From sequence record PZ445463.1: a stretch of 43,096 bases of DNA; one strand, given 5' to 3'. A model generated the notes under the pieces. It saw only the letters and a list, made by a program, of their open reading frames with translations. It was not told the DNA's origin and did not search any database. Positions 2,776 through 42,280 of this stretch are shown here, in pieces. This DNA comes from a phage. Each line of letters begins with the position of its first letter. Position 1 is the first letter of the stretch. The position numbers and the translations under genes were made by a program.

Positions 2776-2797
2776 TAGCCCCGAAAGGGGCTTTCTT
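2776..2797 (+). terminator. Hairpin with GAAA loop after portal gene (weak U-tract)
   Basis: agcccc-gaaa-ggggct then ttctta. Confidence 0.35.
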
Positions 2798-2835
2798 ATA
2801 GTATGCTATTAACTTTAGCGCCACAGGGTTGATCT

Positions 2836-3879: not shown

Positions 3880-4340
3880 TGATGGGCTTTTTCAAAGTAA
3901 CTGACGTACCGTCTCGTCGCGTAGTCCAGTACGCCCGCGTGTCTGGCTCTGGCGAGAACGTGGTATTTATTGAGGACGAAAGTGTACTCGGTACACCGGT
4001 AGATGATATGCCGTTTGCAGATAAAACCGGTATTGCGTTGCCCGCCGCCGGTATGCTTTATGAAATTCCGTATCTGGCGGACGCTGGCGACGTGTATTTC
4101 TCTGCGCAACCGCAGGACGCTGAACTGGCGGGCGGCAGCGCAACCATCACTGTCGAGGTTAAGGCAGGCAAAGCGCCGTATTCTCTGACCTGGTACAAAG
4201 ACGGTAAGGAAGTGGTGAATGCGCCTGAGGAGGCTCTGTCTCTGACGGTTAATGCGGTCGGCGAATACTTCGTTAAAGTTACTGATGCCGATGGAGTAGA
4301 GGCGGTAAGCAAAGCGGCGAAGGTTACTAAGCCAGAATGA
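3879..4340 (+). CDS. Ig-like domain protein (possible capsid decoration)
   Basis: C-terminal motif KAGKAPYSLTWYKDGKEV...GEYFVKVTDADG resembles bacterial Ig-like fold; paralogous motif in ORF 7341-7685. Confidence 0.55.
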   Translation: MMGFFKVTDVPSRRVVQYARVSGSGENVVFIEDESVLGTPVDDMPFADKTGIALPAAGMLYEIPYLADAGDVYFSAQPQDAELAGGSATITVEVKAGKAPYSLTWYKDGKEVVNAPEEALSLTVNAVGEYFVKVTDADGVEAVSKAAKVTKPE

Positions 4341-4343
4341 TAA

Positions 4344-4370
4344 AAGGCCCCATTATGGGGCCTTAGTTTT
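4344..4370. terminator. Bidirectional terminator between convergent genes
   Basis: aaggcccca-tta-tggggcctt followed by agtttt. Confidence 0.5.
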
Positions 4371-4573
4371 CAACGGAATCTTGTGTTTAAATCCTGCTCA
4401 TGGACAACCCTCAGAACAGTGTCATAATCCCCGTATCTTCCAGGTTCAAATATATCTAATGCCTTGTAAGCAGACATTGCGTCAGGGAAAACCTGCAGAA
4501 CCTTTTTAACCCGGCACAAGTCACCGTCGAACTCTTCATCGAACTCTTGAACTACTTCGCAAATTGCATACAT
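4370..4573 (-). CDS. Hypothetical 67 aa protein, reverse-strand moron in head module
   Basis: ORF with AGGAGGTG SD (revcomp of 4579-4586); own promoter 4601-4629 on - strand; convergent terminator hairpin 4347-4362. Confidence 0.6.
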   Translation of the reverse strand: MYAICEVVQEFDEEFDGDLCRVKKVLQVFPDAMSAYKALDIFEPGRYGDYDTVLRVVHEQDLNTRFR

Positions 4574-4598: not shown

Positions 4599-4629
4599 GA
4601 ATAGTACCCTATTATATTGGGGTGTGCAA
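4599..4629. repeat. 31-bp exact repeat (second copy at 13124-13154)
   Basis: gaatagtaccctattatattggggtgtgcaa identical at both loci. Confidence 0.9.
4601..4629 (-). promoter_or_regulatory. sigma70-like promoter TTGCAC-N17-TACTAT with embedded GAATAG-N4-CTATT inverted repeat
   Basis: Read on - strand; 31-bp block 4599-4629 identical to 13124-13154; drives gene 4370-4573. Confidence 0.55.
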
Positions 4630-4680: not shown

Positions 4681-4696
4681 AACTATTCGAATAGTT
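4681..4696. promoter_or_regulatory. Perfect 16-bp palindrome AACTATTCGAATAGTT
   Basis: Uses the same CTATTC/GAATAG half-sites as the promoter-embedded repeat, in everted arrangement. Confidence 0.4.
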
Positions 4697-4947
4697 GACT
4701 TTTCACTAAAAATATGATAAGCTCCACCTGAGCTTGTGAAGTATGAACAAGCGACCGCGGCGCGGGCAGGTAACGGAGCGGGACGTAAGTCCTGAGTGCA
4801 GTTACGCTGACGCGTTCGGAAGGGCCATACTCTATTGCTTGTGTAAAAAGTAACTGGTTTACTGAGATTACGCCGTTTCTATGTTTAAATGATAAGGACT
4901 AGCGCCCCGCTTTATGGCGGGGCTTTACTTATCGAGAAAGGGGAAAC

Positions 4948-13095: not shown

Positions 13096-13125
13096 TTTAA
13101 ACCCCTTCATTGTTGGTGTAAGCGA

Positions 13126-13154
13126 ATAGTACCCTATTATATTGGGGTGTGCAA
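13126..13154 (-). promoter_or_regulatory. sigma70-like promoter TTGCAC-N17-TACTAT (exact copy of 4601-4629)
   Basis: Identical 31-mer; positioned upstream of reverse-strand island genes. Confidence 0.55.
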
Positions 13155-25903: not shown

Positions 25904-26219
25904 TTCTAAATTCCTTATATTGTTGGGGTATGTGCTTACTATAATAGTCTGCTATTAGGGTGTCAATCTGTTTTATCGAACCAACGACAAAAACATTTGC
26001 GCCACGTTTACGTATACGCTCGTGTTCCCGTAGCTGGTGCGGGTCTGGCTTAGTGTTTTCGTCTTTCTTCACCTCGACGAACCAGACGATGCCGCCGGGT
26101 AGAATTGCCAGCAGGTCAGGAGCGCCTGAACGTCCTTCGTAGGAAAGTTTACGAACGAGGCCACCAATGGCCTCGAATCGCTCTTTTGCGTATTTCTGGA
26201 TGCGGCCCTCTTTAGTCAT
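25887..26219 (-). CDS. VRR-NUC domain nuclease
   Basis: PD-(D/E)XK-like core GAPDLLAILPGGIVWFVEVKKDEN ... QLREHERI. Confidence 0.6.
   Translation of the reverse strand: MTKEGRIQKYAKERFEAIGGLVRKLSYEGRSGAPDLLAILPGGIVWFVEVKKDENTKPDPHQLREHERIRKRGANVFVVGSIKQIDTLIADYYSKHIPQQYKEFRNETRI
25938..25966 (-). promoter_or_regulatory. sigma70-like promoter TTGACA-N17-TATAGT with AATAG-N4-CTATT in spacer
   Basis: Lies within 3' coding end of VRR-NUC gene; upstream of 25712-25903. Confidence 0.45.
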
Positions 26220-30211: not shown

Positions 30212-30270
30212 CTTAATTTCTCGCTTTTAAGTTTCGTTTACTCCGGGAAGCTGCCCGGTCAGTGATTAGA

Positions 30271-30299
30271 ACTATAATAGCTAACTATTCAGGTGTCAA
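30271..30299 (-). promoter_or_regulatory. sigma70-like promoter TTGACA-N17-TATAGT with GAATAG-N4-CTATT in spacer
   Basis: -35 and operator half-site overlap the last codons (YLTPE-stop) of ORF 30285-30488; upstream of SSB-like gene. Confidence 0.45.
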
Positions 30300-32539: not shown

Positions 32540-32570
32540 TTGTTTCTCTCCTCTCGTTTGGTATGGGCTA

Positions 32571-32599
32571 ACTATAATAGCGAACTATTCACATGTCAA
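32571..32599 (-). promoter_or_regulatory. sigma70-like promoter TTGACA-N17-TATAGT with GAATAG-N4-CTATT in spacer
   Basis: Upstream of acidic-protein gene; divergent from the XRE gene. Confidence 0.5.
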
Positions 32600-32615
32600 T
32601 GGGCTTTTCTAAAAT

Positions 32616-32633
32616 AATTAATATGGTACTATT
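32616..32633 (+). promoter_or_regulatory. Possible extended -10 promoter (TGgTACTAT) with degenerate AATAT-N4-CTATTC repeat, for XRE gene
   Basis: TG-n-TACTAT at 32624-32632; no good -35. Confidence 0.3.
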
Positions 32634-32663
32634 CACATATCAACTGACTAAGGAGTAATTGAC

Positions 32664-32879
32664 ATGCAACCATCTGAACTAGGCATCCGTGTAGAACAAC
32701 GCCGCAAAGAACTCGGCATCTCCCAGCGCCGTTTGGCGGCCCTGACCGGCGTTTCCCAGGGCGCGATTAACCAACTGGCACTTGGAGTAACTCAGGACGT
32801 CCGCCCGGCAACGCTGTTCAAACTGGCGGAAGTTCTGGAAGTAGACGCCAAGTGGCTGGCGTTAGGTGAAGGGGCTTAA
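32664..32879 (+). CDS. XRE-family helix-turn-helix transcriptional regulator (Cro/CI-like)
   Basis: HTH signature ISQRRLAALTGVSQGAINQLALG; AAGGAG SD; isolated + strand gene between two - strand operons; terminator overlapping stop. Confidence 0.75.
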   Translation: MQPSELGIRVEQRRKELGISQRRLAALTGVSQGAINQLALGVTQDVRPATLFKLAEVLEVDAKWLALGEGA

Positions 32880-32895
32880 AGCCCCTTTCTTTTTA
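32869..32895 (+). terminator. Terminator overlapping XRE stop codon
   Basis: aggggct-taa-agcccct then ttctttttac. Confidence 0.55.
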
Positions 32896-35313: not shown

Positions 35314-35604
35314 TTACCGTTTAGCCAACCCTTCCAGCAAATTTTTATACTCTTCAAAATATTCCTCGACCAAATCATCGCCGAAATAGAAGTCGATATA
35401 CTCGAGATTATCTCTTACGTTAAGCGATGCCGACATGGTGCTTAGTTGGCGTAAGCTAATTAGCTTCATTTCTGTTTCTACGCAGAAAGGCCGGTAGGTA
35501 TCAAGATGGCAAGAGATATTGAAGCATAAAGCGAACTCTCCGGCCACGGAGTGAACCATATACACTTCGTTTTCTGCTTTATTGTGGAAAATTACGCCTT
35601 TCAT
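35314..35604 (-). CDS. Hypothetical 96 aa protein
   Basis: ORF coupled to upstream HTH gene. Confidence 0.5.
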   Translation of the reverse strand: MKGVIFHNKAENEVYMVHSVAGEFALCFNISCHLDTYRPFCVETEMKLISLRQLSTMSASLNVRDNLEYIDFYFGDDLVEEYFEEYKNLLEGLAKR

Positions 35605-35786
35605 TTCACGTTCTCCTTAATCCATGCTTCGACTTTATTACGGTCAAATGTTCCCGGTAAACGGCGGCCCATAACCTTAATACAGCAGTCAGGGAATTTG
35701 CCGCTGCGCAACCAGTTATTAATGGTCTGACGTGTCACCCCGATACGCTCGGCTACCTCATTCTGTGTCATGTAATGTTGCATTTT
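35601..35786 (-). CDS. Small HTH DNA-binding protein (AlpA/excisionase-like fold)
   Basis: MTQNEVAERIGVTRQTINNWLRSGKFP; start at internal ATG 35786 with GGGGA SD; first gene after - strand promoter 35815-35843. Confidence 0.6.
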   Translation of the reverse strand, partial: KMQHYMTQNEVAERIGVTRQTINNWLRSGKFPDCCIKVMGRRLPGTFDRNKVEAWIKENVK

Positions 35787-35843: not shown

Positions 35844-35880
35844 CCAATCCCTGCAATATTTAATCTTTACAAAAAAGTTA

Positions 35881-35910
35881 TTGAAAGTTCTTGACACATG
35901 TTTGTATAAT
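35881..35910 (+). promoter_or_regulatory. sigma70-like promoter TTGAAA-N18-TATAAT (rightward)
   Basis: Consensus -10 TATAAT at 35905-35910; back-to-back with the leftward promoter. Confidence 0.5.
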
Positions 35911-35936
35911 GGTTTTGGGACTTGTATATATTACGG

Positions 35937-35969
35937 AGTTGACGAACCCTCCCCGAGGGATTCGTCAAC
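35937..35969 (+). other. Strong hairpin gttgacgaa-ccctcc..gaggga-ttcgtcaac
   Basis: 9-bp perfect outer stem plus inner ccctc/gaggg pairing. Confidence 0.5.
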
Positions 35970-36109
35970 CCCTCCCAGACAGCTGAGATGCTTGCCTTGT
36001 GGTTTAAGGATAAGTGTATCTAAATCTCATTTAAAGAAGTAACCCGCTGAAATATCTACTGTTTCTTAATGTGCCGTAGATTCGCAACCGTAAAAATGTA
36101 ACGATTATT

Positions 36110-36137
36110 GGGCAGGCTTAGGGCCTGCCCTTTAGTT
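36110..36137 (+). terminator. Terminator ending the short non-coding unit
   Basis: gggcaggc-ttagg-gcctgccc then tttagtt. Confidence 0.5.
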
Positions 36138-36202
36138 ACCAAGTAATAAGAATAAAGGCACAACAGTTTCGAAAGAATCACAACGGCAACGTAACTATTC
36201 TC

Positions 36203-36231
36203 TTGCACACCCCAACATAATAGGATACTAT
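36203..36231 (+). promoter_or_regulatory. sigma70-like promoter TTGCAC-N17-TACTAT with TAATAG-N4-CTATTC inverted repeat
   Basis: Two mismatches from the 31-mer family; followed by conserved AACGAGA leader and SD of first early gene. Confidence 0.55.
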
Positions 36232-36265
36232 TCACTTATCGAAACGAGACAGAGGAGTGAAGGTT

Positions 36266-36451
36266 ATGTTTAAGAAGGGTCAGTTGGTTCGTAATAGATT
36301 GAGCGGCGATTTATTTACAGTAATAGAATCAAATCTAATGTGGTTTGGTTTTGTGGAGGTTAATAGCGTAGCGGGTTTCGGTAAAGGGTTACTCCGTAAA
36401 TGTGATTTAGAACTCATCGGCAACAATTTTAAATTCAAAGGGGCGAAGTGA
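36266..36451 (+). CDS. Hypothetical early protein (61 aa)
   Basis: ATG 36266 with AGAGGAG SD downstream of promoter 36203-36231. Confidence 0.5.
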   Translation: MFKKGQLVRNRLSGDLFTVIESNLMWFGFVEVNSVAGFGKGLLRKCDLELIGNNFKFKGAK

Positions 36452-37641: not shown

Positions 37642-37670
37642 TTGCACACTGTGATAGAATAGGCTACTAT
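37642..37670 (+). promoter_or_regulatory. sigma70-like promoter TTGCAC-N17-TACTAT with GAATAG-N4-CTATTC inverted repeat
   Basis: Same architecture and AACGAGA leader; upstream of 37702 ORF. Confidence 0.5.
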
Positions 37671-37701
37671 TCATTTACACAAACGAGAGGAGAGACAGAA
37701 G

Positions 37702-40467: not shown

Positions 40468-40487
40468 CTATTTTCTGCAATGACTAG

Positions 40488-40516
40488 TTGACTATTACCT
40501 ACGACCCTATTATATT
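40488..40516 (+). promoter_or_regulatory. sigma70-like promoter TTGACT-N17-TATATT
   Basis: Follows terminator 40435-40467; same AACGAGA leader upstream of 40550 ORF. Confidence 0.5.
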
Positions 40517-41877: not shown

Positions 41878-42047
41878 TGTTCAGCGACATCAACGCAGCA
41901 ATCGAAGAAGCAATCTGGCGCCGTTACAACGGCGAGCAACAGCGTCACTTCTGCCTGGTGCAACGTGGTAACATGGTCGCCGTGGTGCAGGACCGCGATA
42001 ACAAATATCCGAATGCGATGTGGACAACGAGGAATTTCTTAGGATGA
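41877..42047 (+). CDS. Hypothetical 56 aa protein
   Basis: TAATG and ATGA coupling to neighbours; unannotated in ORF track. Confidence 0.4.
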   Translation: MFSDINAAIEEAIWRRYNGEQQRHFCLVQRGNMVAVVQDRDNKYPNAMWTTRNFLG

Positions 42048-42280
42048 TTACCAGCATTCCTAACCTGATTAAAGAATTTGGTACGATGGCGGAGACATGC
42101 CGACAAACCGGTATCAACGAAATGACGATTGCTAAGTACAGTAAAGACGTTGATTGTGAGCGCCACGTAATTTATAACAATCGTCTGATGACGCACGTTA
42201 AGACTAGCCCGGTGTTATTCACGCGCCGTGGTATCACTAAAACTGAGCAACGTATTGCTAAAGAGGAGAGTGGAGAATGA
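42044..42280 (+). CDS. Hypothetical protein (78 aa)
   Basis: Start at ATG 42044 rather than GTG 42020. Confidence 0.45.
   Translation: MITSIPNLIKEFGTMAETCRQTGINEMTIAKYSKDVDCERHVIYNNRLMTHVKTSPVLFTRRGITKTEQRIAKEESGE

Follow-up and report, generated by a model that had tools for sequence, protein, structure and literature searches.

Operators of phage 434 are 14 bp long, which is also the size of AATAG-N4-CTATT, the palindromic core that is the subject of this study. It recurs in phages of the subfamily Guernseyvirinae (Kagunavirus and Jerseyvirus), which are among the most often isolated phages of Escherichia coli and Salmonella and serve in biocontrol and as engineering scaffolds (e.g., CM001). 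One of them, Escherichia phage SonjaBuckley_Bas74 (Bas74), belongs to the BASEL reference collection. Promoter-like copies of the motif have been described in this group. For phage fBC-Eco01, seven "phage promoters" with the consensus tgAATAGTa-ccTATTat-T were found with PHIRE and ascribed to a phage RNA polymerase (PMC9825357; GenBank OM272052); the Golestan paper likewise gives seven PHIRE promoters, and the record of phage Jersey carries sigma-70 promoters at several of these places. The motif itself is thus not new, given its listing for fBC-Eco01. The literature that we searched contained no transcriptome, start-site map or regulator study for Guernseyvirinae, nor any paper reading the motif as an operator or linking it to an XRE-type regulator. 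Here, we analyze the motif in a window of 43,096 nucleotides (PZ445463.1), the complete Bas74 genome (PQ850627.1) rotated by 538 bp. Our computational contributions are a reading of the motif as the putative operator of a regulon, a third promoter class, an extended -10 promoter apparently subject to autoregulation, and a narrowing of the candidate binders to a 434-Cro-like XRE protein.

The original prediction held that at least seven promoter-like sites share the inverted repeat GAATAG-N4-CTATTC. All seven listed sites were recovered at the predicted coordinates and on the predicted strands, and the repeat is inverted as described; its literal form has to be given up, because a perfect copy occurs only once (at A4; Table 1). 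The core common to the seven sites is AATAG-N4-CTATT flanked by G or T and by C or A, which yields the consensus KAATAG-N4-CTATTM. Exact copies of this core number 7, against 0.02 expected from dinucleotide-preserving shuffles, so the motif is far commoner in the genome than in shuffled sequence; 16-mers with two or fewer mismatches number 12 (1.66 expected). When all 5-Nx-5 palindromes were counted without bias, AATAG-N4-CTATT ranked first in the genome, its 7 copies comparing with 3 for the runner-up. Genome-wide scanning with a weight matrix derived from the seven sites returned four more at 16.5 to 17.7 bits (starts 2796, 4689, 32619, and 40482), after which the next best scored 10.3 bits. 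By comparison, perfect operators score 20.7 to 22.9 bits, and the genome-wide maximum in mononucleotide shuffles averaged 12.4 bits (95th percentile, 16.2 bits). The motif search thereby raises the total from seven to 11 sites, 10 of them intergenic; the eleventh, B1, is a promoter inside a gene. Among the additions is the degenerate copy foreseen before the XRE gene (TAATATGGTACTATTC). The everted palindrome AACTATTCGAATAGTT at 4681 to 4696 is also present, although it is better read as the left arm of a normal N4 site (C1) plus an orphan half-site.

Two promoter subclasses had been proposed, one with the repeat over the -10 and one with the repeat in the spacer. Both exist, as does a third, in which the repeat coincides with the -35. 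Counted from the start sites implied by consensus -35/-10 hexamers conserved across all copies, the operator centers lie at about -12.5 in class A (over the -10), -18.5 in class B (in the spacer, abutting the -10), and -33.5 in class C (on the -35). Automated picking of the best promoter gave unstable alternatives, such as ATCACA-17-TATAAT at A2, and was dropped. Class A has the form TTGCACAC...TAATAGGRTACTATTC, with a -35 TTGCAC, a 17-bp spacer, and a -10 TACTAT overlain by TAATAGGRTACTATTC (sigma-70 score, 8/12). Class B has the form TTGACAnnnKAATAG-N4-CTATTATAGT, with a -35 TTGACA, a 17-bp spacer, and a -10 TATAGT (11/12); its operator reads KAATAG-N4-CTATTA, K being G at 30271 and 32571 and T at 25938. 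Class C consists of the rightward promoters TTGACT-17-TATATT (C2) and TTGACT-17-TAAGCT (C1), in which the 4-bp center TTGA and the right arm together spell the -35. At the XRE gene, the promoter lacks a functional-looking -35 (CTTTTC), for which an extended -10 compensates; the G-to-T "defect" in the left arm of its operator creates the TGn of that extended -10. Because one palindrome occupies three registers, it appears to be independent of polymerase contacts. Comparative genomics (below) supports the original view of sigma-70-type promoters with an embedded, putative operator for a dimeric regulator, at which occlusion of polymerase would be possible.

Table 1. Promoter-operator sites, candidate regulator genes, and an associated terminator in the Bas74 genome (positions are those of the window)
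Feature	Coordinates	Strand	Description
A1, class A	4599-4629 (hexamers 4601-4629)	-	Operator 4599-4614
A2, class A	13124-13154 (hexamers 13126-13154)	-	Operator 13124-13139; 29-bp core identical to A1
A3, class A	36203-36233	+	-35 36203-36208; -10 36226-36231; operator TAATAGGATACTATTC 36218-36233; 22.9 bits
A4, class A	37642-37672	+	TTGCAC-N17-TACTAT; only perfect GAATAGGCTACTATTC, 37657-37672
XRE promoter	32604-32634	+	Extended -10 TGGTACTAT (32624-32632); operator TAATATGGTACTATTC 32619-32634, class A register; 17.1 bits
B1, class B	25938-25966	-	Operator 25942-25957; inside VRR-NUC/resolvase coding sequence
B2, class B	30271-30299	-	Operator 30275-30290
B3, class B	32571-32599	-	TTGACA-N17-TATAGT; operator 32575-32590 in spacer
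C1, class C	4689-4723	+	Operator GAATAGTTGACTTTTC 4689-4704; -35 TTGACT 4695-4700; -10 TAAGCT 4718-4723
C2, class C	40482-40516	+	Operator GACTAGTTGACTATTA 40482-40497; -35 TTGACT 40488-40493; -10 TATATT 40511-40516; 16.5 bits
Orphan site	2796-2811		TTATAGTATGCTATTA; directly after portal terminator; 17.7 bits; no convincing promoter
XRE/Cro-like gene	32664-32879	+	71 amino acids, HTH_3; single-gene unit between own promoter and bidirectional terminator
Terminator hairpin	32868-32888		Common to XRE gene (+) and helicase-primase gene (-)
AlpA-like HTH_17 gene	35601-35783	-	60 amino acids; considered as binder, disfavored
Metallophosphoesterase with N-terminal helix-turn-helix	11734-12864	-	376 amino acids; considered as binder, unlikely

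Bas74 is a Kagunavirus of a strictly lytic siphovirus group with genomes of about 43 kb and 50% GC. A rightward arm begins near 36.2 kb, takes in the lysis cassette, a small-gene block, the terminase genes, and then the structural genes, and finishes at 23.3 kb. The replication genes are read leftward, between 35.8 kb and 23.4 kb, and within the structural region two small accessory blocks have the reverse orientation. The sites are distributed over all of these units, and nearly all strong promoters that can be recognized in Bas74 contain the 14- to 16-bp palindrome. A3 drives the rightward small-gene cluster that starts at 36266, and A4 drives the genes from 37702 on, including holins and endolysin. 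Both reverse-oriented class A promoters serve accessory genes: A1 a 67-amino-acid gene (4370 to 4573), and A2 the genes for superinfection immunity, a metallophosphoesterase with a helix-turn-helix (HTH), and a hypothetical protein (13110 to 11507). Among the replication genes, B1 drives methyltransferase and helicase genes, B2 drives the single-stranded DNA (ssDNA)-binding/annealing protein and the DNA polymerase block, and B3 is divergent from the XRE promoter, the two operator centers being 44 bp apart. C2 follows the lysis-cassette terminator and drives genes from 40550 on into the terminase genes. C1 faces spanin, scaffold, and capsid genes and adjoins the orphan half-site CTATTC at 4683 to 4688. 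No RNA polymerase is annotated among the 81 Bas74 genes, with no independent search made for a cryptic one; transcription of Bas74 relies on the host sigma-70 polymerase.

The palindrome is conserved well beyond Bas74. We fetched 64 loci from IMG/VR through alignment of the XRE protein and added five complete reference genomes. AATAG-N4-CTATT was the top or equal-top palindrome in nearly every Kagunavirus or Jerseyvirus locus, the exceptions being three or four short or partial loci in which another palindrome ties or leads. Its sites are syntenic across 21 Kagunavirus loci, about 12 Jerseyvirus loci, and 3 further complete genomes, at offsets from the XRE start of about -6.5 kb, -2.5 kb, -89, -45, +3.5 kb, +4.9 kb, and +7.8 kb. 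All 11 Bas74 sites recur in other complete Kagunavirus genomes, except A1 (in L070) and the orphan site (in fBC-Eco01). The arms show majority frequencies of 0.99 to 1.00, against 0.60 to 0.90 for the central 4 bp (19 to 26 distinct sequences per promoter); among 127 sites with perfect arms, 28 different centers occur. The DNA preceding B2 is a mosaic that comes in at least four unrelated versions, and the -35, both arms, and the -10 are nevertheless retained. B1, though coding DNA, keeps its arms (0.99) while its center (0.60) and neighboring wobble positions drift. The operator of the XRE promoter with its TAATAT is invariant in 21 of 21 Kagunavirus loci, C1 is identical in 4 Kagunavirus genomes, and the orphan site is identical in L069 and L070. 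Every Kagunavirus and Jerseyvirus locus has one ACTAG arm at C2, but the side that carries it differs between the genera (12 and 10 sequences, respectively). Invariant arms, a free center, and three registers together point to the footprint of a dimeric DNA-binding protein, not to polymerase contacts or promoter ancestry, and on this comparison the palindrome is very probably a protein operator.

The published reading, in which the repeat is a promoter for a phage RNA polymerase, is also the one annotated in the fBC-Eco01 record, whose promoters match A1, A2, B1, the XRE promoter, A3, and A4; the seventh lies beside the portal terminator, near the Bas74 orphan-site gap. Against it stand the lack of any polymerase among the annotated genes and the position of every promoter copy inside a sigma-70 -35/-10 frame. 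Mere shared ancestry of duplicated promoters would account for the identity of A1 and A2 over 29 bp and for class A cassettes that travel with accessory genes; it leaves unexplained why otherwise unrelated promoter sequences hold one palindrome in three registers, and why invariant arms sit beside a freely varying center in two genera. That the repeat is no operator at all is therefore highly improbable.

Class A promoter-operator cassettes go with reverse-oriented accessory genes inserted in the structural region. fBC-Eco01 (L068) has an extra gene with an intact class A cassette (3918 to 3933) in the gap where Bas74 has the orphan operator only. This suggests that the class A cassette is a portable expression module and that the Bas74 orphan may be a deletion relic, left over from such an accessory-gene cassette.

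The distribution of the motif also bears on whether its binder is encoded by phage or host. When IMG/VR was scanned for exact matches to the class B core, multi-copy loci were found only in Guernseyvirinae contigs of about 42 kb and 50% GC; low-GC contigs gave single matches, most likely by chance, and the scan provided no evidence of the operator outside Guernseyvirinae. Cornell-type relatives (e.g., St162) lack AATAG-N4-CTATT and carry a related element, TAWTAS-N4-STWATA, at promoter-like sites in -10 and -35 registers (5 sites versus 0.05 expected). If the palindrome were the site of a host transcription factor used by the phage, its spread over both hosts could be accommodated, since E. 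coli and Salmonella share most regulators, but nothing specific favors this idea. The motif tracks the lineage of the phage and not its host: Salmonella is infected by both Jerseyvirus and Cornell-type phages, whose half-sites differ, while E. coli Kagunavirus and Salmonella Jerseyvirus share the core despite their different hosts. No E. coli regulator is known to us whose consensus is AATAG-N4-CTATT, and a host factor seems very unlikely.

Of the three phage proteins put forward as binders by the original prediction, the XRE protein is favored, the AlpA-like protein is disfavored, and the HTH of the metallophosphoesterase is unlikely. The XRE gene is conserved and has an HTH_3 domain and an AAGGAG ribosome-binding site, but it is unannotated in PQ850627.1, which instead annotates Bas74_0048, a 31-codon open reading frame (ORF) on the opposite strand (32679 to 32774, -) that is probably a mis-annotation. 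The HTH_3 domain scores 49.7 bits against a Pfam cut-off of 23 (E = 3.9e-13). Among proteins of solved structure, the nearest in sequence are 434 Cro (E = 8.5e-6) and 434 repressor (E = 1.1e-5), aligned over residues 6 to 68; identity to 434 Cro is about 39%, and the alignment spans the full length, including the C-terminal WL..G motif. A single-sequence AlphaFold2 model (mean predicted local distance difference test score, 81) has four helices by DSSP, of which the C-terminal one is of low confidence and merges the last two helices of the 434 fold. Foldseek matched the model to HipB, C.BclI, 434 repressor and Cro, SinR, and P22 c2 (template modeling scores of 0.6 to 0.7; probability 1.00), with weak E-values of 4e-3 to 4e-2. 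XRE is thus predicted to adopt an all-helical 434-Cro-like fold, that of a family of dimeric operator binders.

Gene order and a comparison of recognition helices point in the same direction. The XRE gene sits in a divergent promoter region with the palindrome on both promoters, its own and B3, and its own promoter carries the candidate operator over the -10, a layout suggestive of autoregulation. Of the Kagunavirus alleles examined, all but one (which reads SQSAINQ) have the recognition helix GVSQGAINQLALG, even an allele that is only 78% identical. In Jerseyvirus the helix is SQSLITH, and the outer base of every operator is T/A instead of G/C; this holds also for L031, where one of the promoters is a Kagunavirus-like recombinant. 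Cornell-type phages such as St162 keep XRE (40% identical) and have no AlpA-like gene. XRE homologues also occur amid repeated 5-N4-5 palindromes in two unrelated phage contig groups (TAAAG-N4-CTTTA in L039-41 and TGTAG-N4-CTACA in L053), which lends weak support, as only 2 of about 18 homologue groups examined show such repeats. Homologues of XRE are present in 488 phage records and those of the AlpA-like protein in 443; the difference, made up of Cornell-type and unrelated phages, lies outside Kagunavirus and Jerseyvirus and hence offers no clean natural knockout there. A search of E. coli chromosomes found no DNA-level homologue of the XRE region, and the sole match was a spacer of a clustered regularly interspaced short palindromic repeat (CRISPR) array. 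This 33-nucleotide spacer (L190; NZ_AP025214.2, 4038667 to 4038699) matches 32595 to 32627, in the B3/XRE promoter region, at 100% and sits in the iap-adjacent array of E. coli strain 2017.09.02CC; it is evidence of a natural CRISPR encounter with the phage group of Bas74.

The AlpA-like HTH_17 protein is a competitor as a repressor or activator acting on the operator. Its domain scores 35.1 bits against a cut-off of 27, it belongs to PHROG 66 ("excisionase and transcriptional regulator"), its gene is found in every Kagunavirus or Jerseyvirus locus long enough to hold it and is absent from the Cornell-type phages without AATAG-N4-CTATT, and its Kagunavirus and Jerseyvirus versions, which come from the genera with the core motif, are 80% identical. 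The gene is mosaic, with four alleles (70 to 100% identity) shuffled among otherwise near-identical Kagunavirus genomes (L004 to L033). At least four AlpA-like alleles occur in Kagunavirus, all with unchanged Kagunavirus-type operators. One has a rewritten helix, VSTMTLNRW instead of VTRQTINNW (L006, L021, and L069), and another has a helix identical to that of the Jerseyvirus allele (VTRRTLNNW), yet the operators remain the same in both cases. We disfavor the AlpA-like protein because its recognition helix changes between phages with identical operators. Moreover, the promoter of its own gene is without an operator, and Cornell-type phages carry a related promoter element although the gene is absent. 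For small HTH_17 proteins of the excisionase type, binding to direct repeats or bending of DNA is more typical than recognition of 14-bp palindromes. The AlpA-like protein is thus an unlikely binder. An analogy with Pseudomonas AlpA and Q-type antiterminators, which are loaded at a promoter-embedded site and insert an N-terminal segment into the RNA exit channel, was considered and rejected: AlpA of P. aeruginosa is a larger, unrelated protein (C-terminal HTH at residues ~128 to 142) with a single asymmetric binding element (GGGACG), whereas the phage protein has 60 amino acids and the phage site is palindromic.

Other phage proteins could in principle occupy the site, namely, the metallophosphoesterase through its N-terminal HTH-like segment, a NinH-like protein (42044 to 42280), or an unrecognized small early protein. 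The phosphoesterase is present in all three genera at 78 to 88% identity, the NinH-like protein gives a match of 23.4 bits (below the Pfam cut-off), and about 40 small Bas74 proteins have no known function. However, a 376-amino-acid enzyme fusion would be an unusual global repressor and is itself expressed from the operator-bearing A2, and no further DNA-binding domains were detected among about 20 proteins scanned. Proteins of the NinH type are Fis-like, non-specific DNA binders. None of these candidates shows the divergent, self-operated promoter layout seen for XRE, and we consider it quite unlikely that any of them is the binder.

Several observations weigh against XRE as the regulator, or against parts of the operator set. 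Between genera, the type of XRE helix goes with the outer base of the operator, but both are genus markers and confounded with phylogeny. From Kagunavirus to Jerseyvirus the helix changes at 4 of its 7 positions without any change in the 5-bp arms; the Jerseyvirus SQSLITH and Cornell-type TQSAISH helices are alike, yet the half-sites differ at one position. The AATAG-type motif and the AlpA-like gene co-occur perfectly across genera. The Cornell-type element is AT-rich and overlaps a TAATAT -10, which makes its homology to the operator less certain. Phage Jersey has not kept C1, a class C site by construction includes TTGACT, so that its match is in part the -35 itself, and the three registers refer to transcription starts implied by consensus hexamers. 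For Guernseyvirinae phages, the literature searched yielded no data on binding, footprints, or expression. Weighing these points with the evidence above, we assign a probability of roughly 55% to the reading in which a 434-Cro-like XRE dimer represses the operator-bearing promoters.

Under repression by XRE, regulation might proceed as follows. Host sigma-70 polymerase would start at all operator-bearing promoters, and XRE would be made from its own weak extended -10 promoter. XRE dimers would then compete with RNA polymerase for promoter sites. As the operator on the XRE promoter is imperfect, we propose that XRE could accumulate before limiting itself. Rising XRE would fill the perfect operators first, so that the accessory-gene, small-gene, and replication-gene promoters of classes A and B would be the first to shut; their operators cover the -10, or the spacer and the edge of the -10, and polymerase would be excluded. 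The imperfect operators (16.5 to 17.7 bits) would be occupied later or less; they belong to the XRE promoter and to the two promoters with the -35 overlap, which face packaging and head genes. The outcome would be self-limitation and possibly a temporal order. Activation from class C is not favored, because all of these promoters match sigma-70 well as they stand and activators do not usually act from -33.5. A bolder version, which we hold tentatively and think rather doubtful, is that this one 434-Cro-like protein is a master timer that, through graded operators in three registers on practically all sigma-70 promoters, its own included, sets the whole temporal program without a phage polymerase, sigma factor, or antiterminator. 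If so, a component of a temperate-phage switch would have been reused as a genome-wide clock in a virulent phage, and portable class A cassettes would plug acquired accessory genes into that clock.

Further sequence features accompany the promoters. The AACGAGA leader described after the rightward copies is present at 36243, 37682, and 40529 (+) and also at 32552 (-). Leaders after class A, B3, and class C promoters share (A)AACGAGA(G)GAG just 5' of the start codon in both genera, and leaders of another type, ACACCAACAATATAAGGA, are found after A2 and B1; the shared leaders may be translation-initiation or RNA-binding signals. Extra orphan half-sites AACTATTC occur at 36193 to 36200, just 5' of the A3 -35 and 33 bp (about three helical turns) from the right arm of its operator, and at 4681 to 4688, beside C1. 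A similar AACTATTC precedes one St162 promoter, and the half-sites may be auxiliary sites. Between B2 and the ssDNA-binding protein gene lies a leader hairpin, CCGGGCAGCTTCCCGG (30243 to 30258, -), which is kept in Kagunavirus, Jerseyvirus, and the Cornell-type St162; as it has no T-run, it may be an RNA stability or processing element.

Upstream of A3, a near-consensus promoter, TTGAAA-18-TATAAT (35881 to 35910, +), is followed by a strong hairpin (35935 to 35972) and a terminator (36110 to 36130), with no ORF. The region from 35881 to 36136 has a fold z-score of -3.99, its conservation in relatives is limited to the 3' 150 bp, and it has no Rfam match; a noncoding transcript of about 220 nucleotides, or an origin region, is possible. 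Rfam and tRNA scans of Bas74 found no RNA genes. The annotated ORFs Bas74_0053 (35867 to 35968, -) and Bas74_0054 (36056 to 36235, -) overlap the terminator, the noncoding region, and promoter A3; they are without family matches and probably are not genes.

Judged from sequence, Bas74 appears to possess a real and well-supported cis-regulatory family, the likely basis of a Cro-type repressor-operator regulon, which is a familiar type of control undescribed for Guernseyvirinae. The operator, its 11 sites, and the favored regulator yield a directly testable model of gene timing and correct the published reading of the motif as phage-polymerase promoters. A compact candidate repressor/operator pair with strong regulated promoters could be used in phage engineering, and XRE supplied in trans might serve as a genus-specific "immunity" factor against lytic Kagunavirus and Jerseyvirus phages.

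Among described systems, the PHIRE promoters of fBC-Eco01 belong to the same sequence family as the Bas74 operators, but the account given of them lacks the palindromic operator nature, the three registers, B2, B3, class C, and the link to XRE. A functional likeness exists to p4 of the Bacillus phage phi29, another virulent phage without its own polymerase in which a phage DNA-binding dimer has an effect set by site position. However, fold, sites, and mechanism are unrelated, p4 being an activator of the late promoter that acts together with nucleoprotein complexes of p6. Controller C proteins of restriction-modification systems (C.AhdI, C.Esp1396I, and C.BclI) are HTH_3 dimers of about 70 to 80 amino acids and are among the best fold matches. 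Their palindromic boxes lie in their own promoter and create a concentration-dependent switch, as proposed for XRE. They differ in serving one operon, as activator and repressor from paired boxes, whereas Bas74 has single palindromes over many promoters and lacks sites at the activating position of about -41.5. As with Cro of lambda and P22, a small, early, dimeric repressor would damp early promoters and its own through operators of graded affinity. In Bas74, however, operators also lie on the replication-gene promoters and on those facing structural genes, an antiterminator-based late switch is not evident, and the fold of lambda Cro is different. A close parallel is phage 434. XRE, at 71 amino acids, has the length of 434 Cro, aligns with it from end to end, and is predicted to share its fold; the 14-bp core with conserved outer bases and a variable center resembles OR/OL of phage 434; and in both phages operators overlap divergent promoters beside the regulator's own gene. 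Bas74 is, in contrast, strictly lytic, with no CI partner and no integrase, and its half-site is AATAG where that of 434 is ACAA; its 11 operators are dispersed over the whole genome, whereas those of 434 form two clusters of three.

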